This document shows, piece by piece, positions 5,084 through 22,459 of a stretch of 64,000 bases of DNA. The position numbers were made by a program, and so were the translations under genes. The stretch's first letter is position 1; the number at the start of each line of letters is the position of its first letter. Under the pieces are notes generated by a model. It worked only from the letters and a program-made list of their open reading frames with translations. It was not told the DNA's origin and made no database searches. Source of the DNA: Escherichia coli (lineage in GTDB: Bacteria > Pseudomonadota > Gammaproteobacteria > Enterobacterales > Enterobacteriaceae); assembly GCF_048403405.1 (NCBI RefSeq), contig NZ_CP183129.1. One strand, 5' to 3'.

Positions 5084-5902
5084 TTATGAGGCCAGTTGCA
5101 ACATGTTTTCAGCCATCACCCACAGGGCGCGGTTGAGCCTGACATCGCCGTCGATGCCTTTAATGGCGCGGGTGTGCGTGCGACCACCTTTTGCCGTCCG
5201 CCCGTTTAAACCACCTTTGATCAGGTTCTCCTGAATACGCTGGTAGGTCGTCCACAGATCGCCGGATTCATCCTGCCAGCGGCGGGGAGCCAGCAACTGG
5301 GATTCCGTCACCGGCTGGTGCTCTTCGCCAAAGCGGTACGTCAGCGCCGCCTTTGCCAGCGCCTGTTGCGCAGGGGGAGGCAGCATCAGCGACTGCATGG
5401 CATCGCGTTTCTCTTCTACCTGGTCAAAAACACTGAGGACTTCATAAGCGCCTTCAATCACTTTCTCCACCACATTGCCTTTATGCGGTACCCGTACTTC
5501 ACCAAACGACTCGCCGCAGACCAGTCCGTTACAACAAACAGATCGAAACAGCCCTGGCAGCATCTGATAAGAACTGGAACCGTCATGGCTGTTGAGCAGA
5601 ATAATTTCCGGCACCTGGTTGCGATTGATCTTGTCTTCCCGGCGCAGACGCAGCATGTGTTTTGTATGCTCACGTTTACCCACATCACGAACACGGGTCT
5701 GGCAGGCAAAAAAAGGATGAAATCCTTCACGCTGGAGGTTATCGAGCAGGGTAATGGTGGGAATATAGGTATAGCGTTCGCTGCGTGATTCGTGCTTATT
5801 TTCCCCGAATACGCTGGGGACATACTGCATCAATTCGTCATGCGTTAATGGGCGATCGCGACGGATTTGATTTACGCGGCCAAAGCGGCTGGCTAAATTC
5901 AT
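5084..5902 (-). CDS. DUF932-family protein (YfjQ-like)
   Basis: 272-aa ORF. Its size and synteny (upstream of radC-like and cbeA/cbtA) match the conserved DUF932 gene of CP4-type islands. Assignment is from memory. Confidence 0.65.
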   Translation of the reverse strand: MNLASRFGRVNQIRRDRPLTHDELMQYVPSVFGENKHESRSERYTYIPTITLLDNLQREGFHPFFACQTRVRDVGKREHTKHMLRLRREDKINRNQVPEIILLNSHDGSSSYQMLPGLFRSVCCNGLVCGESFGEVRVPHKGNVVEKVIEGAYEVLSVFDQVEEKRDAMQSLMLPPPAQQALAKAALTYRFGEEHQPVTESQLLAPRRWQDESGDLWTTYQRIQENLIKGGLNGRTAKGGRTHTRAIKGIDGDVRLNRALWVMAENMLQLAS

Positions 5903-6089
5903 GGTAAATTCCTTAATAAAGAATATAAAAAACAGGGCCGCAGCTTCTGAAAAATTGCGGCTAATTTAATGCGTGATTAAAACGGACGGTAGTATAGGTG
6001 GGATAAAATAACAGGTACGTGCAGATATTAAATTACATTCCGGCAGTGCATATATGAAAGTGATATAGTGCTGAAATAATACATATCTG

Positions 6090-6120
6090 AATTCTCCCGG
6101 TGATAGTCACCGGGAGAATT
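6090..6120 (-). terminator. Perfect 14-bp-stem hairpin downstream of the 317-aa gene
   Basis: aattctcccggtga-tag-tcaccgggagaatt. It lies 19 nt after the stop at 6139. There is no strong U-run, so the terminator function is inferred. Confidence 0.45.
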
Positions 6121-6138
6121 TAAGTTTGAAATGACACC

Positions 6139-7092
6139 TCAACCACGGGATAATCTTGTTTCTATTCCCTGAACTCTTTCGTCTATTAACCTTTCAATAA
6201 CAGATATTTTATCTGACTTGTAAAATTCAACCAGAAAATCCAGACGCTCTTTATGCGTATCACTGATAGACTCCCGTTCCCGTTTTTCAGAAAGTTTACG
6301 TCTGAAGTTTTTTTGGTAAAACGCTTTATTTATTTTCTTTACCGCTTTCTGCTGGAGATCATCATCCGCTGACCATAAATCCAGCATGGAATAAACGGCG
6401 TGATAGGTTTCTACACTATTAAGTGGTTCCGGGATCTGAACGGGGTCCAACTGGTTTCCTATATTACTACCGTGCTCTTTCTGGAATTTATTAATGTAAT
6501 TATAAGCCCATATACAGACTTCGTCATTATCCTCATTAAGCCAGCGTAATTTTATTCTCTTATGTTCATTTGCCCTCCAGAATACAAGCCTCTCATATAG
6601 CCACTGTCTCATCAACGGTGCCTGATTAGTCTCAATATTAATATAGTCCAGTAATGCAACGATGATTGAGTATCTTTCGCTATGGCTTGCAGGAGAATCT
6701 GTTATTCCGGCTTTCTGATACCAGTTAATGTTTAAATTTGTGCCCAGCTTTTCGTTAATTGACTCCATACAGCGGTAATCAAGACACATCACGCCCCATA
6801 GCCAGAACGTCGCTCTTTCATTTTCTTTTAACCAACTAAAATATTTCTCCGGCAGAAGCATCGTATTAATCGACAGCTCCAGTGAGCGAATAAAATTACT
6901 TCGCTGAATGGGATCGGGATACCCGGCCTCGAGGGCTGTATTAATAATTCTCTCCGAAAGAGATGTATCTGGATTGTTCCCGTCAAACGCAAATTGATTT
7001 GCTCCCTGAATGTTTTTCCTGATGTACCAGAAAAGAAACCTGCTGGTTCGGATGTCCTTCACTGCTATTGATGAGCGCACATTAACGGCCAT
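6139..7092 (-). CDS. Hypothetical protein (317 aa), family not recognised
   Basis: Long AT-rich ORF with its own 5' region and a downstream hairpin. No motifs recognised. Confidence 0.55.
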   Translation of the reverse strand: MAVNVRSSIAVKDIRTSRFLFWYIRKNIQGANQFAFDGNNPDTSLSERIINTALEAGYPDPIQRSNFIRSLELSINTMLLPEKYFSWLKENERATFWLWGVMCLDYRCMESINEKLGTNLNINWYQKAGITDSPASHSERYSIIVALLDYINIETNQAPLMRQWLYERLVFWRANEHKRIKLRWLNEDNDEVCIWAYNYINKFQKEHGSNIGNQLDPVQIPEPLNSVETYHAVYSMLDLWSADDDLQQKAVKKINKAFYQKNFRRKLSEKRERESISDTHKERLDFLVEFYKSDKISVIERLIDERVQGIETRLSRG

Positions 7093-7683
7093 TGTTCTAC
7101 CTCGTCATCCTTGTTAAATCAGTCGAAATCAATAGCGTAATTATGACGTGTTTTCGAAGTAAAACCGTAGCAATAAATCAATAAAAGTGGAAAACACGTA
7201 GTAATATCGTATTATTCCATAGTAATAGAGTACCATTAACGTAGTTTTTTATTTATCACCATACTCACAGCTTCCGCCCGTAGAAAACGGCTGGATAGTC
7301 TTCAATTTTTCCACGTATAGCCCTGGTGGCTTTACGGGTGAAACCTCCCAGGATAACGAGTTGACATCTGGAAGATGTCATTCATGACCGCACTCATAGA
7401 TTAAATCAATGTATTAATTATAACTTAAGTGTAAAACTCTTTGTCTTCAAGAACAGATAATTAACTACGAACACCAGTAAATACCGGGCTTCTACTCTTT
7501 TTATCACCCTTTCTTTATGAATCAACATTGCCGGTATTAATATTATGTTTATCACTCATTCATTAGATTCAGCATATAGAGGGATGACACCAGAGACAGG
7601 GAAAAGTAATCCAGATCGGCATAGTTCAGTGAAAAGTTACTACAGCACTTATGGATATGTAACCAACCACAAGGAACTGAAGC

Positions 7684-9632: not shown

Positions 9633-10645
9633 CTATCCAAAAAAATGGTCCCAGGCATTACCAGCCCACTCGATAAGTTTGTCTTTACCCTTACGGGTAA
9701 GCTCTTTGACAGGCTTTGGTAACGGAAAAGAATCAATAACGTCGTCGAGTATCCCGGAGATTACGCTGCCGAAGCCGTTTTTTGCTTCCGTCTTGACCTC
9801 TTCGGTTTTGAACTCATCCTTAAACTGCGAAGCCGTGCTACTTTTAGCCCGATCAGGCAAAGCCCGAATAATAGTCTCTACCAGACGAAGAATGTTGTAG
9901 CCCTCATCGGCGGAGACAGGTGTCACCGGATAGTGCGTAAAACCAAATCGTTCAGTAATGTAGGCTTCTTTCTTTTCGATGTTGATGCGCTGTGCAGGAG
10001 ATGGCTGATGCAGATGAGTATCCCACTCGCGGAATGGCTCAATTTTATCAACCTGGTTAAGGACGAATAAAACGCGCTCACCCCCACCAGCAGGGAGCAG
10101 AACATTGTTGTAGAAATGCTCATCCGCAGAAAAGGCCCGATCGTCACCTTTTATTACCCACAGGATGAGATCCAGGGAGGGAAGCAAATTGCGGTATAAA
10201 TCTTCATACTCCTATCCCGCCGGGCATTCTCACCGACACCAGGTATATCAATTATCTTCAGCGAATGTTTTCCGAAGCGTATATGCAATTCCTGAACTTC
10301 ACGAGTACATGCCTCAACGTCGCTAACTGCACAAACCTCCCCTTTAAACAGCGCATTACATACGCTGCTTTTCCCCGCGCCAGTTTTTCCCATGGCACCA
10401 ATCACGGGTTCATAGTCGATGGCTTCACTGATTTTGTTCAACAGCTTTTCCCGCAGTGGCTGAGGGAAAATATCAAGAATATCCCTGATGTCGGGTATGT
10501 GCGGTGTGCTATCACCTTTTTGCTCGTTGCTACCATTACGTTCTGGAAATATATTGCTCCACATTCCCAAAATCCCGCCTTCCCTTCTGGTGACGCCACT
10601 GGCATCAGTAATCATCCGGCCTTCGCCCTTTACCGGGTCATCCAT
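9633..10645 (-). pseudogene. YfjP/YeeP/YkfA-family GTPase, frameshifted
   Basis: Two ORFs (163 aa and 184 aa) together make one GTPase. It has the P-loop GKTGAGKSS, then IIDIPGVGEN. The frame is lost near 10205-10215, where reading ...ARRDRSMKIY should be ...EYEDLYRNLLPSLDLILWVIKGDD. The NQVDK G4 motif lies in the second ORF. Confidence 0.75.
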
Positions 10646-10684: not shown

Positions 10685-11368
10685 TTACTCTCTGAAGGTC
10701 TGAATTACGTCACTTATGAAACGAAAGTGAGGGAGGGCTGAAATAAACTCTTCACTGGCAGTCAGAGCATCAAGTTCAGGCTTTCTGCGGAAAGAGGTAT
10801 CCAGAACGGTTACGGCGTTAACGTCTTCCATCCGAAACACCTGTAAATTTCTGGTGCGGGTAGCAACAAGAAACCAGTTTTTGGACTGAAATATCAGACG
10901 GCGGGGAGCTACTGCTTCGTAGCTTTTACCGTTAACCAATAATGTAACGGCGCGGTAGTCGCGGATAGCTTCCGCCAGTTTCAGAAAACAGGCAGTCTGC
11001 GTGACGGGAGAAGATAATGCCCCATGCCCAATAAGACACGGCGATACGCCGGAATTGCTGGCAATCAACCGGATCAACTTGCGGTTCTGAGCCGGAATGA
11101 TTCCTGAAATTCCTGAATTACGTATAAACGCAAATGTATTGGGTAAGTGCTCCCGGCCTGTTTGGCGGATAAGTCGGTAACTTCCGCTGCGATGCTCAAG
11201 ATCCAGATGGATCAGGCGTTGCTGAAAATCCCGCTGTAGGGTGCGTTCTGAGACACCAAATTCATCAGCTAATACTTTAAGCTCCAGAGATTCACCAGCC
11301 AGTAAGCGGCTGATAATGACTGATAGCCTGACAGACAGGCGGTCATGATGATCATGCTGTGTTTTCAT
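10685..11368 (-). CDS. HTH plus WYL-domain transcriptional regulator (YfjR-like)
   Basis: I chose the start MKTQHDHHD (227 aa). The product has an N-terminal HTH (LKVLADEFGVSERTLQRDFQ) and a C-terminal WYL-type segment (RRLIFQSKNWFLVATRTRNLQVFRMEDV). The ORF track extends 24 codons further upstream. Confidence 0.65.
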   Translation of the reverse strand: MKTQHDHHDRLSVRLSVIISRLLAGESLELKVLADEFGVSERTLQRDFQQRLIHLDLEHRSGSYRLIRQTGREHLPNTFAFIRNSGISGIIPAQNRKLIRLIASNSGVSPCLIGHGALSSPVTQTACFLKLAEAIRDYRAVTLLVNGKSYEAVAPRRLIFQSKNWFLVATRTRNLQVFRMEDVNAVTVLDTSFRRKPELDALTASEEFISALPHFRFISDVIQTFRE

Positions 11369-12036
11369 AGTGGGGACAGTCCTGTTCTCCCAAAATATCA
11401 TGGTGTTGATACGGGAGATTATGCCGTACAGGTACGACACGTTATGTCGTACTAAAGGGGAGTTGATTGAAAAAATAGTGGGGTAACTGCAGTTATCTAA
11501 TACTCTGAAATATAAGTTAATTGATTAACTCTAAGGCAAGGTCATCATCACAGAAACGACACAACCTGTCGCGTTGCGCATTGTAAGAAAGAGGGTATCT
11601 GATGCGTACGAAAATGATTTAGTTCTGAAAATAGTTGCAAATGAATCAATACATTCTTATTTTTACAAAAAGTTGGAATGCATAAGCCAATTGACCATTA
11701 GCAATGACAAATCCTTCTAGCGCACTTCGTTGATTAAATATAGATTTAGGTATCCAATCTATTCACACATAACGATTTGCTCCGCTGAACTAACCGAGCA
11801 ACACTGCAAAAAAATATACCACGCCGACAATCAAGAAAAGTACTCACCAGTATAAAGTATCAAGTAAATCAATGCGATGTAGAATAAACACCGGCCCTTA
11901 ATGTGATAGGAATCACATTCCTTCAGCCCTGCATTCCGGCATAATCATATCGGAAGGTTAAACTGCTCACGCCATATCCCTTTTTAGGGGGATATCTATG
12001 AATACCGTTTCAATCCACTAATACATAAGGTAATAA

Positions 12037-12579
12037 ATGGACGCAGAGAAAATTCAGTCAGATATAGATGCTCTTTTGACATACATGAACGATGACATGG
12101 AGAATCTTGGTGAAACAATAAAAACCGTTACATTTGGATTCGAAACAGGCCAGAACGACCGCATTGCTATAGACGAGTTGCTTCACTGGCGGGAAGAGTA
12201 TTTGTTCAAAATCATCAATATTTGCCATTCCCGCTCTCTATTACGTAAGGACTTTGGAGATTTTGAGCATGTATCCTTGACAGAAGAGGGTCAGAGTCGT
12301 GCTATATCAATCAAACACGGAAAAAATCGCTCTTACGAGTTAGGGGCCAGCATGCAAATCGCAACGTTAAATGTTCATGGGCCTGCACAGGTTGGTAACG
12401 GTAATACGCAAAACATCCACAATGTATTTAATCAATTACTTCAGCAGATCGAGAAATCTTCCGCTTCTGATGAAGAAAAACAGGAAGCCAAAAAACGCCT
12501 GGCGAAATTTTTGGAACATCCTTTGGTTGGTTCTATTGTCGGCGGTCTTGCTGGTTCCCTTCCTGGTCTAATGGGATGA
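12037..12579 (+). CDS. Hypothetical protein (180 aa) with a C-terminal glycine-zipper-like hydrophobic tail
   Basis: AAGG lies about 9 nt upstream of the ATG. The C-terminus is LVGSIVGGLAGSLPGLMG. The central segment HGPAQVGNGNTQNIHNV is low complexity. The stop overlaps the next start (ATGA). Confidence 0.6.
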   Translation: MDAEKIQSDIDALLTYMNDDMENLGETIKTVTFGFETGQNDRIAIDELLHWREEYLFKIINICHSRSLLRKDFGDFEHVSLTEEGQSRAISIKHGKNRSYELGASMQIATLNVHGPAQVGNGNTQNIHNVFNQLLQQIEKSSASDEEKQEAKKRLAKFLEHPLVGSIVGGLAGSLPGLMG

Positions 12580-12848
12580 TGGAAGATCTTAAAAAAACGA
12601 TCCGACTGCGCTGTGCATTCTGCCGTTCGGAACAGTTCGCCTTACCTTACGAGGGTTACTCCCCCCCAAGTCATAGCTTTGTCGTTTGTGCCAACTGCGG
12701 GAGGGAAAACGACGTCACATCTCTGCTCATCGTTGCTAAATCGAAAGGGATGGAAATAGCTGAAGAGTATGCTGATGAACTAGTTGAACAGATGACGAAA
12801 GATCTGTTTAAAACTTTTAAAAACCGTAAATTCATAAAGATAAAGTAA
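12576..12848 (+). CDS. Small zinc-ribbon protein (90 aa)
   Basis: Two CxxC pairs are visible (CAFCRS ... CANCGRE). The gene is translationally coupled to the upstream ORF by a 4-nt ATGA overlap. Confidence 0.6.
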   Translation: MMEDLKKTIRLRCAFCRSEQFALPYEGYSPPSHSFVVCANCGRENDVTSLLIVAKSKGMEIAEEYADELVEQMTKDLFKTFKNRKFIKIK

Positions 12849-12875
12849 CTGTTACAAAAGTTACATGGAGGACAT

Positions 12876-13850
12876 ATGTCAAGGACTAAAGTACTTTTTG
12901 CTTATTGCCATGAGTTAGATCGGTGTTTATCGATTGATGAAGCAAGAACAGAATTCTTTTCAAAAAAACCGCAAGACAGACAACGATTCACTTTCTCCTG
13001 CAGCGATCGCAACTGCAATGTCACCATTAGTGGTGTTAATTACCATGTCAAAGCGGAAGATGGTGAAAAATTCAAAGTTGCACATTTTCGTTCTCCACAT
13101 CCCCATAATCTGGGATGTGAATGGATGCAGTTTTCTGAGGAAGCTAACCAGCCCCGTCAGGCTAGTGAAACAGAGGCTGACTACACAGAAAGAAAGGCAA
13201 GGCAGAAGCTAAATGATTTTATCAATTGCTTCGATCCTTGTACTGATGAGACAGATTCTGGGCAAAAAAAAACTGGACAACTTACATCACTTTCGCAGGT
13301 AAACCATCTCGCCAAAGACAATGATTTGTCTAACGATAAATCCCACAAGTGGAGCCGTTATACACGAACTAACCAGCTACAGCGCCTAGTAGACACCTGG
13401 CAGGAAGCCAAGAAAACTCTTACATACGACGAGTTCAGAACATTAAAACTAAGAGTCACAAACTACGGAAAGGTTTATTTCCATGAATACATAACGCATA
13501 TTCAGAAAGGGCTAAAAAACCAATATGAAGGCGTCATTTTCGGCGGTGGTTCTTTGGTTAAACGTTATGGTCGTGGCTTTCTCATTCACTTTTTCGATAA
13601 ACATAACGATAAACCAATTCGTCTGTATATCGATAAGAACCTTATGGAGAAAGGGCGATTCAGTCATTATATTGATGAAATATTATCAACAGAGAATGTG
13701 AGATATTTTCGTGTCTTTTTGTTAAACCCAGAAGTTTCCGAAAAAAAAGACCGAACTGGCAAGCCAGTTATCAACCTTGAGATATCAAGCCTGCGACAAT
13801 TGGCGATTTACTACGAACTCAACTCTTCTGAAGATAATGATTTTGTTTGA
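12876..13850 (+). CDS. Hypothetical protein (324 aa) with an N-terminal Cys/His cluster
   Basis: Strong RBS (GGAGG 5 nt upstream). The N-terminus carries C42-x4-C47 ... H70-x4-H75-x-H77-x3-C81 (FSCSDRNCNV...VAHFRSPHPHNLGC), then an acidic/polar linker, then a roughly 160-aa C-terminal domain. No family recognised. Confidence 0.65.
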   Translation: MSRTKVLFAYCHELDRCLSIDEARTEFFSKKPQDRQRFTFSCSDRNCNVTISGVNYHVKAEDGEKFKVAHFRSPHPHNLGCEWMQFSEEANQPRQASETEADYTERKARQKLNDFINCFDPCTDETDSGQKKTGQLTSLSQVNHLAKDNDLSNDKSHKWSRYTRTNQLQRLVDTWQEAKKTLTYDEFRTLKLRVTNYGKVYFHEYITHIQKGLKNQYEGVIFGGGSLVKRYGRGFLIHFFDKHNDKPIRLYIDKNLMEKGRFSHYIDEILSTENVRYFRVFLLNPEVSEKKDRTGKPVINLEISSLRQLAIYYELNSSEDNDFV

Positions 13851-13887
13851 CAGTAGCATGCTAAATTTATAAAAAGGAGAAGTATTT

Positions 13888-14181
13888 ATGGTCCCTGGAT
13901 ATGTATACATATTAATCAACACAAGCATGCCTGGTTTAATTAAAATAGGTCGAACGCTACGCGACTCACGCATGCGTGCGCGTGAACTCTTCTCCACCGG
14001 AGTGCCAACACCGTTTCAAGTTGCTTTTGAGCTGTTCGCTGAACAACATGAAGCTCTCGAGGCTACGGTACATAATGAATTGAATGATTTTCGAGCTAAT
14101 GTGGCACGCGAGTTTTTCCGCTACCCACTCGACAAGGCCGTTGCATTACTAATTCAGCTGCCCCCTCCAAAACGCCACTGA
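13888..14181 (+). CDS. T5orf172 / GIY-YIG-like (MUG113-type) domain protein (97 aa)
   Basis: GYVYILINTSMPGLIKIGRTLRDSRMRARELFSTGVPTPFQVAFELF...HNELNDFRANVAREFF is the T5orf172 domain pattern. AGGAG lies 8-9 nt upstream. The ORF may be the 5' half of a frameshifted longer gene. Confidence 0.7.
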   Translation: MVPGYVYILINTSMPGLIKIGRTLRDSRMRARELFSTGVPTPFQVAFELFAEQHEALEATVHNELNDFRANVAREFFRYPLDKAVALLIQLPPPKRH

Positions 14182-14188
14182 ACAGTAT

Positions 14189-14539
14189 GTGGCCGAAGAT
14201 ATAACACAACGGCTTAGAGAAAAATATCCTTTATATATACCTCCAGAAATTGTAGCGGTGAGGATTGTTCAAATGCCCGGAGGTGTCTGGCTAGAGATAA
14301 CGACTGAGAAAAAAATCGCTAGATACCTCGTAGATCAGATAATCCAACGAACAGATCTAGCATTCATTGTTGACACAGACGAGGCATTCTTTCGGTCAGA
14401 AGATGATGTCCGTTTAAATGCGAATAAACTGGTAAATGATTACGATATTTACTCTATCGTCATGACTACGGACCTCTTTCATGATTACGCCTGCCAACAA
14501 ATAACACGCGCGCATCATGCCCAGAGAAATTTCGTCTGA
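14189..14539 (+). CDS. Hypothetical 116-aa ORF (GTG start), possibly the detached C-terminal part of the T5orf172 gene
   Basis: It starts 8 nt after the T5orf172 stop, in the +1 frame, with no RBS. Its frame is open back to 14153, overlapping a C5 run at 14161-14165. Confidence 0.4.
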   Translation: MAEDITQRLREKYPLYIPPEIVAVRIVQMPGGVWLEITTEKKIARYLVDQIIQRTDLAFIVDTDEAFFRSEDDVRLNANKLVNDYDIYSIVMTTDLFHDYACQQITRAHHAQRNFV

Positions 14540-14586
14540 TGCAACAGGCGTAACGATACCCCAAATTCGTTACTCACAGTAATCCA

Positions 14587-15800
14587 TGTCCAGTTTGGGT
14601 GTAAATATCACGCATAATCGTGCCATTCATATTTAGAGATCATCCGGCATAATCAATCTGCCAACGAAGGAGATCGCTACGCGTAAAGCCCGTTTTACTG
14701 AGCATCAGATCATCGCTGTGATTAAGTCAGTTGAAGCCGGACGAACCGTTAAAAATGTCTGCCGGGAGGCCGGTATCTCTGAAGCCACCTACTACAACAG
14801 GAAGTCCAGATACGGCGGCATGGAAACTTCTGATATTAAAATCTTGAGGACGAAAACCGCCGTCTCAAACAGATGTTTGCTGACCTGAGTCTGGAGAGCC
14901 GAGCGCTGAAAGACGTTATCGAAAAAAAGCTTTAAAACCAGCCTTTAAGCGTGAGCTGGTCACTCATCTGATAACGACATTCGGACTCAGTATCAGTCAG
15001 GCCTGCCGGAGTCTGAACCTGAGCATAACGTTTACCGTTACCGCCCGGATACCACGCGTGATGAACCCGTTATTGCCGCCCTGTAGGCTGCGGCTGAGCG
15101 ATACCCACGATACGGCTTTCCGAAGCTTTTCCAGATTCTGCGACGGCAAGGATACTCGTGGAATCACAAAAGGCTCCACCGTATTTACTGTCTGCTGAAG
15201 CTGAATTTTCGCCGTAAGGGCCAGCAACGGCTGCCGGTACGCATCCCTCACCACTGGCTACGCCAGAAGCGCTGAACCAGTGATGGTCTGTCGATTTCAT
15301 GCATGATGCGCTGGCCTGTGGCCGTCATTTTCGCACGTTCAATGTTATTGATGACTTTAATCGTGAGGCGTTATCGATTGAAATCGATCTGAATCTGCCA
15401 TCTCTGCGGGTGGTCCGTGTACTTGACAGGATCGCGGCAAACCGCGCTTATCCGGTCATGCTGCGCATGGATAATGGTCCGGAATTTATCTCTCTGGCGC
15501 TGGCTGAATGGGCAGAGATACACGCAGTAAAACTGGAGTTCATCCAGCCGGGTAAGCCGACGCAGAACGCTTTCATTGAGCGTTTTAACAGGATATACCG
15601 TACAGAAATACTCGATTTTTATCTGTTCAGAACGCTGAATGAAGTACGGGAAATTACGGAGAAATGGTAATCAGAATATAACTGTGAACGCCCGCATGAA
15701 TCACTGAACAATATGACACCGGAGGAATACCGACTTCACAATTATTTGGCCGGGATCTCAAAAAATGCATGGAACTAAAACGGGTCTATTTACAGGGCCA
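14587..15800 (+). mobile_element. Decayed IS3-family insertion sequence (orfA/orfB remnants); boundaries approximate
   Basis: An orfA-like segment (KARFTEHQIIAVIKSVEAGRTVKNVCREAGISEATYYN) has no ATG and is then frameshifted. The orfB-like DDE/rve core is spread over more than one frame (AERYPRYGF...HKRLHRIYCLLKLNFRRKG...). There is an in-frame TGA at 15281-15283, then FMHDALACGRHFRTFNVIDDFNREALSIEIDLNLP...PGKPTQNAFIERFNRIYRTEIL, then ...ERPHESLNNMTPEEY after another break. Terminal inverted repeats not confidently found. Confidence 0.75.
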
Positions 15801-18177: not shown

Positions 18178-20775
18178 TTAAAAGAAGTCATCCTGAAATG
18201 CCAGGTCGATCGTGATCGGGTAGCGACCATACTCTGTTGCGCTGTCCGCATTCTCCAGGATAAGAACATACTTGTTTTTACGATTGAATGCCGTCCCCAT
18301 GAGTTTCATGGTTACATCGCGGGTGCGTTTACCCATATCTTCGTTATCACTGTCGAAGCATACTGTTTCCGTGCCGGAGACGACCTGGTTGTTTTCATCG
18401 ACGATAAAGATATTCAGCGTGCGCGGCTCATTTAAATCATTCACTGCCGAAGTCTGAATAAAACCAATTTTATCAATGCTGTTAACCAGTTTGATCACCT
18501 GATCCCGCGCAACGACGGGCACGGGCTGCCGCTGGGGTTGCTTCTCAGCCGCTTTCTTTTCAAGCGCGCGAATCTTCAACACAGGAACACACACTTCCTG
18601 CAGCATGGCTCCGCCATGAACGAAACGAGCACCCCCTACGAAGTGGAAACGCTGTACTCCTTTGGGTAACAGGAATTCACTTTCATCGCTTGCGCCTGCA
18701 GTATCAGCCAGTTTGCCGTGCCAGCAAAATTCACTTTCAGGCAGTTGATGGCCTACAATAAAACGCTTATTCGCTTCAATCGTGTCTTTGGCTTTACTTT
18801 CCAGCTTCGTTTTATCCTGCTCCACCAGCGCTTGTTGTTGGAACAGGAAGCCGTGATCGGCGGTAACAAAAATTCGGCTGGCATTAAATCGGCTACGCAG
18901 GCGTGAAACCAGATCTTTTAGCTCAGTGATTGCACTTCGGCAGGCCTCAAACGTTTTATCTTCCGTTGCAGCCTTATCACCCATGGCATCTATAGTGTCG
19001 TGCCAGATATAAACTACGGAAGCGTTGCGGATTTGCTCGTTCACTTCCTGGTTATTGGCGTTCTGCAAGTCCTTTGCTTTCAGCGCTACACCATTCACCT
19101 TCGCAAGAATAGCGGCTCTTTTTTCAAACCCGGAAGTGGACATCCCATCGGCGTATACTACACCAGAATTATCAGGAAGATAGCTCAACGACTCATGAGG
19201 CAACAGTGCGGCCATGCCCAGTTGGGTATAGCTTGGGAGCACTCCGGTCTGGGAGCGCAGCTCTGCACTGAAGTGCTTCTCATAGTTGATATGCCTGCCC
19301 AGCTCTTCCGCCACTTCGTAGCGCAATGCATCCGAGATCACGACAAAAACACGTTTGACCTGCGAGGTGTCAAACTGACGTTTAACATTCTCTTTATAGA
19401 AATTGCGCTGCAGGGGTATGCCGCTAAACTGCCAGGCCTGCATACGGTTTTCCGCTTCCAGCAGTTTGTTCCAGCCGCGACTTAGTTCAGTCAGATACCA
19501 ATTGCTGTATAACTCTTCGATGAATTTATCCAGTTCATGCAGGATCATCGCCCCTTTGCTGTGCACTGGTGCAGCATATTCATTGAACAAACGATAGGTC
19601 TGATCGAAGCGATAAATTTCGTCACAATAGGCCTTCCAGAACGCACCTGTATCGGGGAAATTAAACCCGTCGGTGTAACGGTTACGCAAATTCAGCAAGC
19701 GTTCTGCCTGACGAATAGCATTCCAGATAGAAAGATACTCTGGGCGGGTTTGGCTCCAGTATTTCGCACTGCGCTCTGAAACCAACGCTTTAAACGCATC
19801 TCTGTCCAGAGTGGTGCTCTCTTCCTGCAACTGTGTCACCAGACCACGGATAATAAGTTGCTCAATAGCCTCGAAGGTTTCACATTTTGCCAGTGTATAT
19901 GGTGAGCTGTAGTTGTAGTGTTCTTTTGGCTGGAGCGTCTGCTGCAAATCCTCTGCACAGTAATCGTATTCTACTTTATAGCGACGATCGTTGCGCCACG
20001 CCCCCATAAAGGCCAGTGACGAGGCCCGACCAGCCGCGGTAGCCAGCACATTTTTACTCAACCAGTCACGATGTGCTTCATCACCCTGCGCCCAGAGATC
20101 GGTACAGAACAGTTTCAGAAGCAGATTTTCCATTGAAGGAGATTCAGACTGGTATCCCAACTCAAGGCGAAGAATTTCCCAAAGTACCTCATCCAGGCCA
20201 AGCTTCGTCAGTACGGCGAAAGTGTTCTCGAGTGCGCTATCATCTTGCTGCCGTGCTGCGACAAACTGCTGAACCAAAGCAAATAGTATTTCTTTGGTTT
20301 CGAAGGTACTGGCCCCGACCACCACCGCCAGCATTTTCTTATCGAGAGAGTTTTCCGTTTCGCGCTCGGTGACCCATCCCTTCAGGATCTGAGTTCGCTT
20401 AACGGTAAAGAAGGCTTTGCGAAGCTGAATATGTTCGCGTAAACCGAGTTGCGGGATACCCAGAGAATTCAGGGTGATCGCCGCATAATCAGCGTGGAAT
20501 TCGGTACTATAGAGGCGGATATCCAGCAACCAGTCCTGCTCGCGAGCAGGAACCTCACAGGTGAAATAGAGTAAAAATTTCTGCTCAGGCTCGTCGATTT
20601 CGAGTCGTTTTTTTGTTGCGAGCACAGAAACGCCACGCATATCCAGCAGCGTGACATTGTCGAGATCCAGCTCATTAATTGAATCAGTGAAGCGTTGTTC
20701 CGGGTCGTGCCAGAAGACGATACGGTTGTCGGTAAACTTCTGACGAAGCCCTGATTCCAGTTCTTTAAATTGCAT
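18178..20775 (-). CDS. pglZ: BREX protein PglZ (alkaline-phosphatase-superfamily)
   Basis: 865 aa. The N-terminus (FTDNRIVFWHDPEQRF) and the central PglZ-type region (VVISDALRYE...TADHGF) are visible. It sits between the embedded pair and brxL. Confidence 0.9.
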   Translation of the reverse strand: MQFKELESGLRQKFTDNRIVFWHDPEQRFTDSINELDLDNVTLLDMRGVSVLATKKRLEIDEPEQKFLLYFTCEVPAREQDWLLDIRLYSTEFHADYAAITLNSLGIPQLGLREHIQLRKAFFTVKRTQILKGWVTERETENSLDKKMLAVVVGASTFETKEILFALVQQFVAARQQDDSALENTFAVLTKLGLDEVLWEILRLELGYQSESPSMENLLLKLFCTDLWAQGDEAHRDWLSKNVLATAAGRASSLAFMGAWRNDRRYKVEYDYCAEDLQQTLQPKEHYNYSSPYTLAKCETFEAIEQLIIRGLVTQLQEESTTLDRDAFKALVSERSAKYWSQTRPEYLSIWNAIRQAERLLNLRNRYTDGFNFPDTGAFWKAYCDEIYRFDQTYRLFNEYAAPVHSKGAMILHELDKFIEELYSNWYLTELSRGWNKLLEAENRMQAWQFSGIPLQRNFYKENVKRQFDTSQVKRVFVVISDALRYEVAEELGRHINYEKHFSAELRSQTGVLPSYTQLGMAALLPHESLSYLPDNSGVVYADGMSTSGFEKRAAILAKVNGVALKAKDLQNANNQEVNEQIRNASVVYIWHDTIDAMGDKAATEDKTFEACRSAITELKDLVSRLRSRFNASRIFVTADHGFLFQQQALVEQDKTKLESKAKDTIEANKRFIVGHQLPESEFCWHGKLADTAGASDESEFLLPKGVQRFHFVGGARFVHGGAMLQEVCVPVLKIRALEKKAAEKQPQRQPVPVVARDQVIKLVNSIDKIGFIQTSAVNDLNEPRTLNIFIVDENNQVVSGTETVCFDSDNEDMGKRTRDVTMKLMGTAFNRKNKYVLILENADSATEYGRYPITIDLAFQDDFF

Positions 20776-21344
20776 TATTGATTCTCAAACCATTCGACCA
20801 GTTCATGAGCGCTAGGGCAAGCAGGGTGTCTGGCAGAACTCTGAATATCAAAACCGTGATGCGTTACCATTCTCCTGGCAAATGCGGTTTTAGAACTTCC
20901 CGGTCCCTGTTTTCCTAGCTCGCGTGAAATTACTTTTAAACGATCCCATGGCATTTCAGTTGTAGCTTCAGGTAACTCTTCATTAAATGTGTCTACTTTA
21001 AGCCATTTTTTCATTGCCTCTGAATCGGCAAGAAACCAAGCCTCAACTGCTTTGACTGCGATAAACGAGATGTCGACATCTTGATGGGCAATTCGGGCCC
21101 GTACATCAGCAACAGATGCCGCATCTTCCAGGTCGGTCAGAATACAGATCCGTTCAGCACCTACATTTCTGAGCCTAGCAACGAAATTATCAACATACTT
21201 CGGTAACAGGTTACCACCACCTTTGGCATCAATAACGGGAGTTACCAATTCAAAATTATTCGTGCGCAGAAATGCAATGAACGCTGGTGAATTCACGATG
21301 ATTGACTCAGTATCACCTTCAACGATAAAACCTATTTTTACCAT
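20775..21344 (-). CDS. Small TOPRIM-like protein (DUF4276/DUF4435/RloB class), partner of the upstream ATPase
   Basis: 189 aa. Candidate TOPRIM residues are visible: IGFIVEGDTE (conserved Glu) and ICILTDLED (DxD-like). The start overlaps the ATPase stop (ATGGTAA) and the stop overlaps the pglZ start (TAATG). Confidence 0.6.
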   Translation of the reverse strand: MVKIGFIVEGDTESIIVNSPAFIAFLRTNNFELVTPVIDAKGGGNLLPKYVDNFVARLRNVGAERICILTDLEDAASVADVRARIAHQDVDISFIAVKAVEAWFLADSEAMKKWLKVDTFNEELPEATTEMPWDRLKVISRELGKQGPGSSKTAFARRMVTHHGFDIQSSARHPACPSAHELVEWFENQ

Positions 21345-22459
21345 GGCAAACCGCCATCAAACATATTCATCAGCCACGCGGTATCCAGTGGGATTTCCTT
21401 TTTATCAACCCCCGCATCTGAAGCATGCATCAGCTGAGTTTTCCCCTCTTTTTTACTAACAAACCACAGTTCGTCTGGTTCCAGATTGCGAACAATAGAT
21501 TCACTATGGGTAGTAATAACAATTGGATGATTCAAAGAGGCATTTTCACGCATCAATTGCACAAGTTCCCCAATGGCTTTTGGGTGAATACCGCGTTCAG
21601 GCTCTTCAATAATGGTCATCCCCGTTTGCTGTGCTCGACTCAAGATGGCCGTCATAATACAAAGCGTGAAGATGGTGCCGTCAGAGATAAGATGGGCAGG
21701 AAAGCGGGCACGAGTTCCCTGTTCTTTAAAGGTCAATACCGTTGAGCCATCCAATTTTTGTTTCTCGGTCGATACATTTTCCATCCCCGGAACGATGAGT
21801 TCCATCCACTCCAGTATTTGCTCTTTAAATTCGCTATTCGATTCGAGAGCAGCAAGCACAGAAGCAATGTTTCGACCATGACTGTCCAGAAATGTCGAGT
21901 CAGTTTTGGCGCTATCGGGCTCTTTAGCACGTAACGGATCGATGCGAAAAACAACAATATTGGTCAAAAAAGCGTACAGTTCACTTTTCCCCAGTAGCAT
22001 TAGTGCCGTCATATCTGACGAGTAGTTAGGGATTAAAGTCGCAGGGATTTCATCACTATCGCTCAGGCGAATCATAAGAGTATCAGGGTGCTTACGATCA
22101 ATATAAATATCTCCATCAATGACCAACTTTTCAGTGATTGTTGGTTTTTTATCCATGTTTTTGATCGTCAAGTCATAGGTAAACTGTTTTCCTCCCAGCT
22201 CAATTTGAAGGTGCAGTGAAGCCGTAGTCCGATTTTCCTTACGCAGCTTGTAGCAATGAATCTGCTGAAAACCGCCAAAATCACGGATTGCTTGTGTCGC
22301 CCCGGTTTTCACTACGGCACCAAAAAAAGCCAATGCATCGGTAATGTTACTTTTGCCCGCACCATTGGCTCCAGCAAAGGTGATAAATGGTGGGCTTTCC
22401 ACAAGGGAAAGCTCCGCGATGCTCTTGTAGCCTTTAATAATCAGGGGATGTTGATCCAT
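21338..22459 (-). CDS. ABC-type (AAA_15/AAA_21-like, OLD/RloA/AriA-class) ATPase
   Basis: 373 aa. Walker A GANGAGKSN, an SDG signature-like motif, Walker B MTIIEEPERGIHP and His-loop VITTHS. The start overlaps the pglX stop (TAATG). Confidence 0.8.
   Translation of the reverse strand: MDQHPLIIKGYKSIAELSLVESPPFITFAGANGAGKSNITDALAFFGAVVKTGATQAIRDFGGFQQIHCYKLRKENRTTASLHLQIELGGKQFTYDLTIKNMDKKPTITEKLVIDGDIYIDRKHPDTLMIRLSDSDEIPATLIPNYSSDMTALMLLGKSELYAFLTNIVVFRIDPLRAKEPDSAKTDSTFLDSHGRNIASVLAALESNSEFKEQILEWMELIVPGMENVSTEKQKLDGSTVLTFKEQGTRARFPAHLISDGTIFTLCIMTAILSRAQQTGMTIIEEPERGIHPKAIGELVQLMRENASLNHPIVITTHSESIVRNLEPDELWFVSKKEGKTQLMHASDAGVDKKEIPLDTAWLMNMFDGGLPW

Follow-up and report, generated by a model that had tools for sequence, protein, structure and literature searches.

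A protein family with a predicted zinc domain and OB fold, carried by mobile elements and by an Escherichia coli defence island

The described proteins that come closest to the gene studied here resemble it in fold, in neighbourhood or in placement. In the eukaryotic replication factor MCM10, the internal domain (PDB 3ebe and 7y01) combines an OB fold with a zinc finger that follows it, and bacterial SSB carries an acidic motif at its C-terminal tip. ArdC, which has a metalloprotease domain, is plasmid-borne, putatively binds single strands and is transcribed opposite transfer genes. TerY-P with an OB-fused kinase is given, in the part of PMC11090510 that cites Gao et al. 2020, as a stand-alone anti-phage system. 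Here we compare these with a 324-amino-acid (aa) open reading frame (ORF) on a 64,000-nucleotide (nt) stretch of Escherichia coli DNA (‘the window’; contig NZ_CP183129.1 of assembly GCF_048403405.1), labelled ‘hypothetical protein’ in RefSeq.

The 324-aa gene is real and conserved, and its family extends far beyond chance. Binding of zinc and of nucleic acid, without DNA cleavage, is the most likely activity of its product, and we give about an even chance to this product being a non-enzymatic, nucleic-acid-binding component of a conflict module of mobile elements. A first-pass annotation, made from the letters alone, had likened its Cys/His cluster to the zinc finger in front of CoiA-like and related nuclease domains and had called it a plausible sensor or nuclease. 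The sensor half of that suggestion, taken as a non-catalytic role, is compatible with our data; the nuclease half is unsupported.

Results

An invariant Cys/His core in a widespread family

The ORF annotated at first pass lies exactly at 12876–13850, its Cys/His segment FSCSDRNCNVTISGVNYHVKAEDGEKFKVAHFRSPHPHNLGC spans residues 40–81, and the motif written for that segment is present literally, as C42-x4-C47 ... H70-x4-H75-x-H77-x3-C81. The protein is also, as had been said, the largest encoded locally, the same-strand ORFs being 180, 90, 324, 97 and 116 aa long. The features of the gene are as follows; those of the protein model come from AlphaFold2 (AF2) and its predicted local distance difference test score (pLDDT).

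12876–13850, plus strand: 324-aa ORF of an unnamed family with a predicted zinc domain and OB fold (ORF list and translation)
12867–12872, plus strand: GGAGGA Shine–Dalgarno sequence, 3 nt 5′ of the ATG of the 324-aa gene (sequence read)
12876–13250, plus strand: N-terminal domain, residues 1–125, bearing the putative metal ligands (AF2 model)
12906–12908, plus strand: codon of C11, a Cys in 127 of 128 members (alignment)
12999–13016, plus strand: C42-x4-C47, the predicted zinc knuckle, both Cys invariant (alignment)
13104–13118, plus strand: H77-x3-C81, both invariant, with C81 directly N-terminal to helix 82–90 (alignment and AF2 model)
13251–13367, plus strand: variable linker, residues 126–164 (pLDDT and length differences in alignments)
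13368–13829, plus strand: basic C-terminal domain with predicted OB fold, residues 165–318 (AF2 model and Foldseek)

A word-indexed search returned 56 close clusters, every one of them unnamed, from Enterobacterales and Vibrio; an exhaustive profile search reached 369 representatives at 50% identity clustering, 239 of them with E < 1e-10. Nearly all of the 369 are 310–340 aa long, align end to end and have the same two-domain layout. The family occurs in at least Enterobacterales, Vibrionaceae, one alphaproteobacterial plasmid and Aliarcobacter, and 36 plasmid records contain a homologue, while none was found in a collection of 50,697 phage records. The ratio of nonsynonymous to synonymous substitution rates (dN/dS) against orthologues is 0.07–0.24, that is, purifying selection, and this includes the clade that lacks the partner gene described below.

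Conservation narrows the Cys/His cluster to its core. Six residues are invariant in 33 close sequences (C11, C42, C47, H70, H77 and C81), five in 63 diverse ones (the same without H70), and across 128 sequences of 20–90% identity only C42, C47, H77 and C81, with C11 present in 127. The C-x4-C and H-x3-C spacings are fixed in 127 of the 128, and the gap between the two halves runs from 29 to 41 residues. Position 70 is His in 111 sequences and Tyr in 13; H75 is free to vary (Asp in 38, His in 27 and Gln in 11, among others), as is H57 (His in 37, Arg in 25, Asp in 23 and Lys in 10, among others). The conserved unit is C-x4-C...H-x3-C, not the whole histidine-rich string, so that the cluster proposed at first pass stands in its four-residue core and falls in its H-x4-H-x-H part. 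The annotation had named as its own refutation a lack of Cys/His conservation among homologues; this fails because the core of the cluster is invariant.

Four invariant Cys/His residues at fixed local spacing, on a knuckle and at the N-terminus of a helix, make a pattern like that of treble-clef zinc sites. Judged from this conservation, the N-terminal domain would hold one metal, most likely zinc, at C42, C47, H77 and C81, with C11 a possible fifth ligand or structural cysteine.

A predicted OB fold and no enzymatic signature

The first AF2 model, from a shallow alignment, had a pLDDT of 73 and a poor N-terminal domain; it was replaced by a model from 128 sequences, with a pLDDT of 89.2 and a predicted template modelling score of 0.86. 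In the latter, residues 1–125 form a domain of beta-beta-alpha-beta-beta-beta-alpha-alpha order with pLDDT >90 except at residues 61–70. C42 and C47 sit on an inter-strand knuckle and H77 and C81 just ahead of helix 82–90, a placement that, if the model is right, would conform to the general arrangement of structural zinc sites made of a knuckle and a helix. In the PDB this domain is matched neither by sequence nor by fold. The acidic/polar linker of the first-pass annotation is disordered at residues 128–147 (pLDDT <50) but partly structured before that, helices 82–90 and 100–110 being part of the N-terminal domain and not of the linker.

The roughly 160-aa C-terminal domain claimed at first pass is confirmed as residues 165–318, modelled at a pLDDT of about 97, in the order beta1–3, helices 254–270, beta4–5. 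This is a five-stranded barrel with the helix between strands 3 and 4, and its Foldseek matches are known OB-fold proteins: E. coli SSB, AspRS/LysRS, RPA and MCM10. A fold unrelated to nucleic-acid binding, the second outcome that had been named as refuting, was thus not seen. The domain is basic (median isoelectric point 9.4, and >8 in 91% of members) and has conserved aromatic residues and a KRYGxGF hairpin loop (residues 229–235); in the model, the N-terminal domain packs onto the basic barrel. Foldseek found no nuclease fold in the AF2 model. Outside the metal ligands, the 128-sequence alignment contains no invariant polar residue, which argues against any enzyme.

Likeness to MCM10, the nearest structural analogue, is at the level of the fold. 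Identity is 9–13%, with no evidence of common descent. The MCM10 zinc finger is CCCH and comes after the OB fold, whereas here the predicted zinc domain is CCHC with other spacing and comes before the OB fold, with the variable linker in between; and MCM10 serves eukaryotic replication, whereas the 324-aa protein is bacterial mobile-element cargo. From SSB and RPA the protein differs by its additional N-terminal helices and strands before the barrel and by the added zinc domain, and it lacks the acidic tip of bacterial SSB. The SSB profile (Pfam PF00436) matches neither the 324-aa protein nor diverse members.

Other profile searches were equally empty. No Pfam family matched the 324-aa protein at E ≤ 1 or 63 diverse members at E ≤ 0.01; NCBIfam, PADLOC and PHROGs gave no family match for the protein or the members scanned, and a PDB sequence search with two profiles gave nothing at E ≤ 10. 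Literature searches on PDC-M14/PDC-S57 and on OB and zinc proteins of conjugative elements gave no match either. With no curated model, source name or literature match, the family and its partner appear to be undescribed.

A convergent partner and the settings of the two-gene module

In 24 of the 27 loci examined, the family gene is met by a convergent ORF of 92–169 aa (about 130 aa), which overlaps its 3′ end by 13–70 nt. Loci of Enterobacterales and Vibrio have clearly homologous partners (tblastn E 1e-5 to 1e-44), and weak Y-R, LTI and DxxD motifs link these to the partners of distant loci. Like the large protein, the partner has no family match.

The module is found in transfer operons of several kinds. 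In VirB-type operons of integrative and conjugative elements (ICEs) and plasmids of the pCRY/pMET1/ICEKp1 family, it lies between virB10 and virB11 with the 324-aa family gene antisense. virB10 and virB11 overlap directly in pMET1 (PMC2262945), and they overlap in pCRY too; blastn shows pCRY-type records without exactly 1,326 nt at the module site, which makes the module an insertion. Positions 6001–7325 of the Kosakonia locus L003, with the large gene at 6001–7008 and its partner at 6939–7325 (and the corresponding module in L004–L009 and L012), set against 11241–13524 of pCRY (NC_005814.1), give a clean insertion of about 1,326 nt. At this site only a few bases separate the starts of virB11 and the antisense gene, and the promoters of both must therefore be inside coding sequence. 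In F-type operons (a Providencia plasmid and metagenomic contigs) the module lies between traF and trbB, again with the large gene antisense. It stands 3′ of traI in Serratia pE13 and beside H-NS on Vibrio pVA1-type plasmids. In a large, same-strand, ICE-like backbone block, which we read from its Pfam content as PFGI-1/ICEclc-like, the large gene is antisense between the SSB and topoisomerase genes. Throughout the conjugative and ICE-like contexts examined, the partner runs in the operon direction and the family gene is the lone antisense gene.

Elsewhere, an Aliarcobacter Tn7-like element carries the module as cargo beside a KAP NTPase, and on a metagenomic contig it adjoins a PIN toxin gene. 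A distant member (25% identity) has no partner and is co-directional with a type I restriction–modification (R-M) operon, 3′ of hsdS.

The slot in F-type operons recalls trbA and artA of the F plasmid, which lie between traF and traQ/trbB as a sense gene followed by a tail-to-tail, lone antisense gene within the transfer operon. No similarity to the partner or to the 324-aa family was detectable in TrbA and ArtA, both small, hydrophobic and membrane-located, and they were rejected as homologues: slot and geometry are shared, the genes are not. Partner-like ORFs occurring alone on about 90 Klebsiella/Raoultella MOBH plasmids were weak matches (50% coverage, E 5e-5) and were not used. A weakly partner-like 139-aa ORF lies at 5875–6294 of locus L037 (Klebsiella pneumoniae pKP04VIM), where the large gene is absent; ORFs of this type belong to long runs of small hypothetical genes, all in one direction, on large plasmids of MOBH/MPF_F type.

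The window copy as third gene of a cassette

In the window, the 324-aa gene is the last of three genes in a conserved cassette.

12025–13834, plus strand: 1.81-kb cassette of the 180-, 90- and 324-aa genes (blastn block boundaries)
12037–12579, plus strand: 180-aa gene with a C-terminal glycine-zipper tail, first of a pair (dN/dS 0.06)
12576–12848, plus strand: 90-aa gene for a zinc ribbon (CxxC...CxxC), second of the pair, with a 4-nt overlap with the 180-aa gene (PADLOC and NCBIfam)

The cassette has 80–89% nucleotide identity with counterparts in Hafnia, Rahnella, Ewingella and one partial metagenome contig, with unrelated flanks, and purifying selection acts on each of its three genes (dN/dS 0.06, 0.15–0.21 and 0.19–0.24 for the 180-, 90- and 324-aa genes, respectively). 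A promoter and terminator scan, otherwise uninformative, found no plus-strand terminator within it, and an Rfam scan of 11000–14800 gave no match. The conserved block stops at 13834, and the GIY-YIG fragment and 116-aa ORF beyond it are not conserved, so we rejected the 180/90/324/97/116-aa group as one system. Across 16 species-level genome loci, the window neighbours are kept only in Rahnella. The ‘cluster’ of the first-pass annotation holds in part: the 180/90-aa pair is independent, occurring in other places without the 324-aa gene, and the GIY-YIG fragment is not within the cassette.

Partner-less copies include those of the window, Rahnella and Pantoea Mb-10. A tblastn search of the window with the partner found no remnant at E ≤ 1, and in Ewingella, Hafnia and the metagenome contig the called gene 3′ of the homologue is unrelated and is not a small convergent ORF. 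On the best reading, the window copy lost its partner and was captured as the third gene of the independent 180-aa/90-aa pair.

That pair forms 109 clusters, which include Pseudomonas and Aeromonas. It stands alone in a Pseudomonas island. In an Edwardsiella prophage, just upstream of the holin gene, a TIGR02642 protein comes next, and on an Enterobacter IncF plasmid, beside KlcA, the third slot holds an unrelated, HEPN-like protein of 244 aa. A relation of the OB domain of the 324-aa protein to that of the TerY-P kinase, or a domain shared with these third-slot proteins, was considered and rejected, hhalign being negative. Since the third-slot genes are unrelated by hhalign, the window trio reads as a mobile core of two genes whose third member can be exchanged, as is typical of defence systems with a modular build. 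The 90-aa protein matches PADLOC PDC-M14A (4e-9) and, under the cut-off, NCBIfam ECs_2282_CxxC (1.6e-5); no PDC model matches the 324-aa protein or its homologues, and the match to PDC-M14 is that of this neighbour alone.

In Ewingella, Hafnia and Rahnella (L002, L028 and L029), the cassette (180, 90 and about 330 aa) lies directly downstream of, and on the same strand as, a full TerY-P triad (PADLOC: TerY 6e-173, PP2C 8e-109 and STK_OB 5e-265); in these relatives it is also beside Mrr and type I R-M genes. OB-fold proteins occur in both systems. The window differs, in that tblastn with the three proteins (TerY vWA, PP2C and Ser/Thr kinase) finds nothing there, the cassette edge at 12025 leaves TerY-P out, and by hhalign the kinase OB domain is unrelated.

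Three smaller observations concern the cassette and its kin. The conserved tail of the 180-aa protein, VGSIVGGLAGSLPG, is glycine-zipper-like, with Gly at every fourth residue, and suggests membrane insertion. A palindrome, GTAAC-T-GTTAC, lies over the stop codon of the 90-aa gene (12845–12864, plus strand), with a third GTTAC 5 nt past it, just upstream of the Shine–Dalgarno sequence of the 324-aa gene. This may reflect a small hairpin, an operator or chance. The 244-aa third-slot protein (7349–8083 of L039, Enterobacter cloacae IncF plasmid OW849460.1) contains RNFFAH, the minimal R-x4-H motif of HEPN RNases, and has no match in Pfam, NCBIfam or PADLOC.

Proposed role and its alternatives

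We propose that the 324-aa protein recognises nucleic acid, with single-stranded DNA (ssDNA) as the leading guess, and does so without cutting. It would be the recognition or blocking part of a conflict module (for defence, exclusion or addiction), acting between mobile elements or between host and invader. Transcription of a transfer operon would co-express the partner and would run antisense through, and so oppose, the 324-aa family gene. Such expression fits a speculative role of the partner as an antidote, which would switch the large protein off while its own element makes ssDNA; the lone antisense placement and the overlapping partner in operon direction are the basis of this self-sparing model. 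A fuller version can be held only tentatively, at well under an even chance. In it, the two genes are a hitherto unrecognised conflict system that spread as a cassette of about 1.3 kb into the transfer operons of several unrelated conjugative classes; the large protein would target the single-stranded nucleic acid of invaders (rival plasmids, and ssDNA or replicating phages) and be off only during its own element's transfer, by means of partner translated from the tra transcript and of antisense read-through, and partner-less copies would be exaptations in other defence cassettes (180/90 with TerY-P, and type I R-M).

If the proposed role holds, the zinc-domain-plus-OB architecture of the family would be a new one among the proteins deployed by mobile elements against one another or against phages, and the family would offer a model for how a conjugative element spares its own transfer intermediate from a weapon directed at single strands.

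Several points weigh against the proposed role. Zinc and nucleic-acid binding are both deduced from conservation and a predicted fold, and the N-terminal domain has no structural match. No PADLOC model convincingly matches any family member, and absence from the 50,697 phage records speaks neither for nor against a role related to phages. Guilt by association fits anti-defence, addiction, exclusion and transfer regulation as well as it fits defence, and the antidote and antisense logic is conjecture throughout. The partner also occurs in non-conjugative settings (Tn7-like cargo), which makes it less plausible that donor cells alone need it. Finally, the window region is decaying, with a frameshifted GTPase, a truncated GIY-YIG gene and an IS3 pseudogene, so the local copy could be a passenger.

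The alternative that survives best, although we consider it unlikely, is an accessory role in conjugation. The protein would handle strands, or would bind single strands or an operator and tune tra expression by convergent transcription, and the window copy would be a displaced remnant with no defence role. An OB fold suits single-strand handling, and such a role would fit the antisense position that the gene takes, inside blocks of transfer or DNA-processing genes or next to them, in all conjugative and ICE-like contexts examined, with the partner in operon direction, often near relaxase, coupling protein, SSB, topoisomerase or H-NS genes. But pCRY/pMET1-type operons that are otherwise equivalent lack the insertion, so the module is dispensable for transfer, and it occupies differing slots in at least three unrelated types of transfer system. 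Its spread over non-conjugative settings as well (Tn7-like cargo, a type I R-M operon, TerY-P islands and the Pantoea chromosome) is how cargo behaves and not how a core factor of transfer does, and purifying selection persists outside conjugative elements.

More doubtful again is addiction of the toxin–antitoxin (TA) kind, in which the large protein would be a non-enzymatic toxin that coats nucleic acid and blocks replication or transcription, and the partner an antitoxin, so that the module stabilises its carrier. The two genes are tightly coupled, with overlapping 3′ ends across divergent members; they are carried on plasmids, ICEs and transposons; and other TA genes (PIN, ParE/RelB and Hok) are adjacent in some contigs. 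Against this, the partner-less copies of the window clade and of a type I R-M operon are intact and under purifying selection, and a free toxin would be hard to tolerate there unless another gene neutralises it. Protein–protein TA pairs are unusual in convergent arrangement, and scans of the large protein and partner with Pfam and other collections gave no TA family match.

We regard as distinctly improbable that the protein is an anti-defence or establishment factor, one that, like ArdC or a plasmid SSB, would protect its element in a new host by binding the single strand as it enters, or by mimicking or occupying nucleic acid. The predicted OB fold and zinc domain suit single-strand binding, the family is mainly plasmid- and ICE-borne, its orientation opposite to the tra operon is that of ardC in pMET1, and the 180/90-aa pair occurs in an IncF leading-region neighbourhood beside KlcA. 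However, the genes lie deep within or beside tra operons, where they would be the last to enter a recipient, and not in leading regions or, unlike ardC, at the end of the DNA transfer and replication (Dtr) region. Chromosomal defence islands and R-M operons, the home of the window clade and other partner-less copies, are unexpected places for such a factor. The protein has no similarity to the ArdC, SSB or PsiB families and lacks the metalloprotease domain of ArdC.

A nuclease, with a CoiA-like N-terminal zinc finger/HFxH region and catalysis in the C-terminal domain or in an HNH-like N-terminal one, is very improbable and was disfavoured in each test made: the Cys/His cluster is real and its core invariant, and knuckle, beta-hairpin and helix follow one another as in the general topology of His-Me finger nucleases, but the C-terminal domain is a predicted OB barrel and not a nuclease fold, and no Asp, Glu, Lys or His is invariant apart from the metal ligands. 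HNH/His-Me finger nucleases should have an invariant general-base His where the first hairpin strand ends and a metal-binding Asn/His in the helix, and the family lacks this pattern; H57, which follows strand 50–54 and would be that base, is His in just 37 of 128 sequences, and H75 in 27. Neither the protein nor diverse members match CoiA (Pfam PF06054 and related profiles, E ≤ 1 for the protein), HNH, PD-(D/E)xK or any other nuclease model in Pfam, NCBIfam or PADLOC, and the PD-(D/E)xK signature that the first-pass annotation proposed to look for in an alignment of homologues, a catalytic domain with conserved acidic and Lys residues, is not there. A single weak PADLOC match to REase_II (E 9e-4, residues 111–211) was rejected as spurious, as it covers the variable linker and was absent from six other members scanned. 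The likeness to CoiA-like nucleases goes no further than the broad notion of a protein related to nucleic acids with a Cys/His metal site at its N-terminal end, and annotation of the gene as a nuclease or as CoiA-like should be avoided.

The surrounding defence island

The window is E. coli chromosome, with 3.3 kb that are 100% identical in several complete genomes; most of this region is present in only 25 of 5,426 genomes. The mobile island in the window carries BREX, HEC-01 and AbiE. Upstream of the cassette are AbiE, CbtA/YeeU, RadC, the frameshifted GTPase and a WYL regulator; downstream are the truncated GIY-YIG gene, the IS3 pseudogene and a BREX type 1 operon.

The GTPase gene (9633–10645, minus strand) has weak LeoBC/LeoA-like PADLOC matches and is split by a frameshift into ORFs of 163 and 184 aa. 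The gene of the WYL-domain regulator (10685–11440, minus strand) is divergent from the cassette across a 600-bp spacer (11441–12036), which has no Rfam match. On the other side, the 97-aa T5orf172/GIY-YIG ORF (13888–14181, plus strand) matches positions 5–91 of 212 of PADLOC PDC-S57 (2.5e-28), and the 116-aa ORF (14189–14539, plus strand), in another frame, weakly matches HEPN_STY4199 (E 0.03). The two ORFs, which the IS3 pseudogene (14718–15670) abuts, look like a truncated or frameshifted single-gene candidate defence gene.

Within the BREX type 1 operon, between pglZ and pglX, lie two further genes (20775–21344 and 21338–22459, both minus strand) that match PADLOC HEC-01B (5e-100) and HEC-01A (1e-181), respectively, over nearly their full length. 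HEC-01A is an AAA ATPase related to the AbiL/AriA type, and the pair looks like a defence system nested in BREX.

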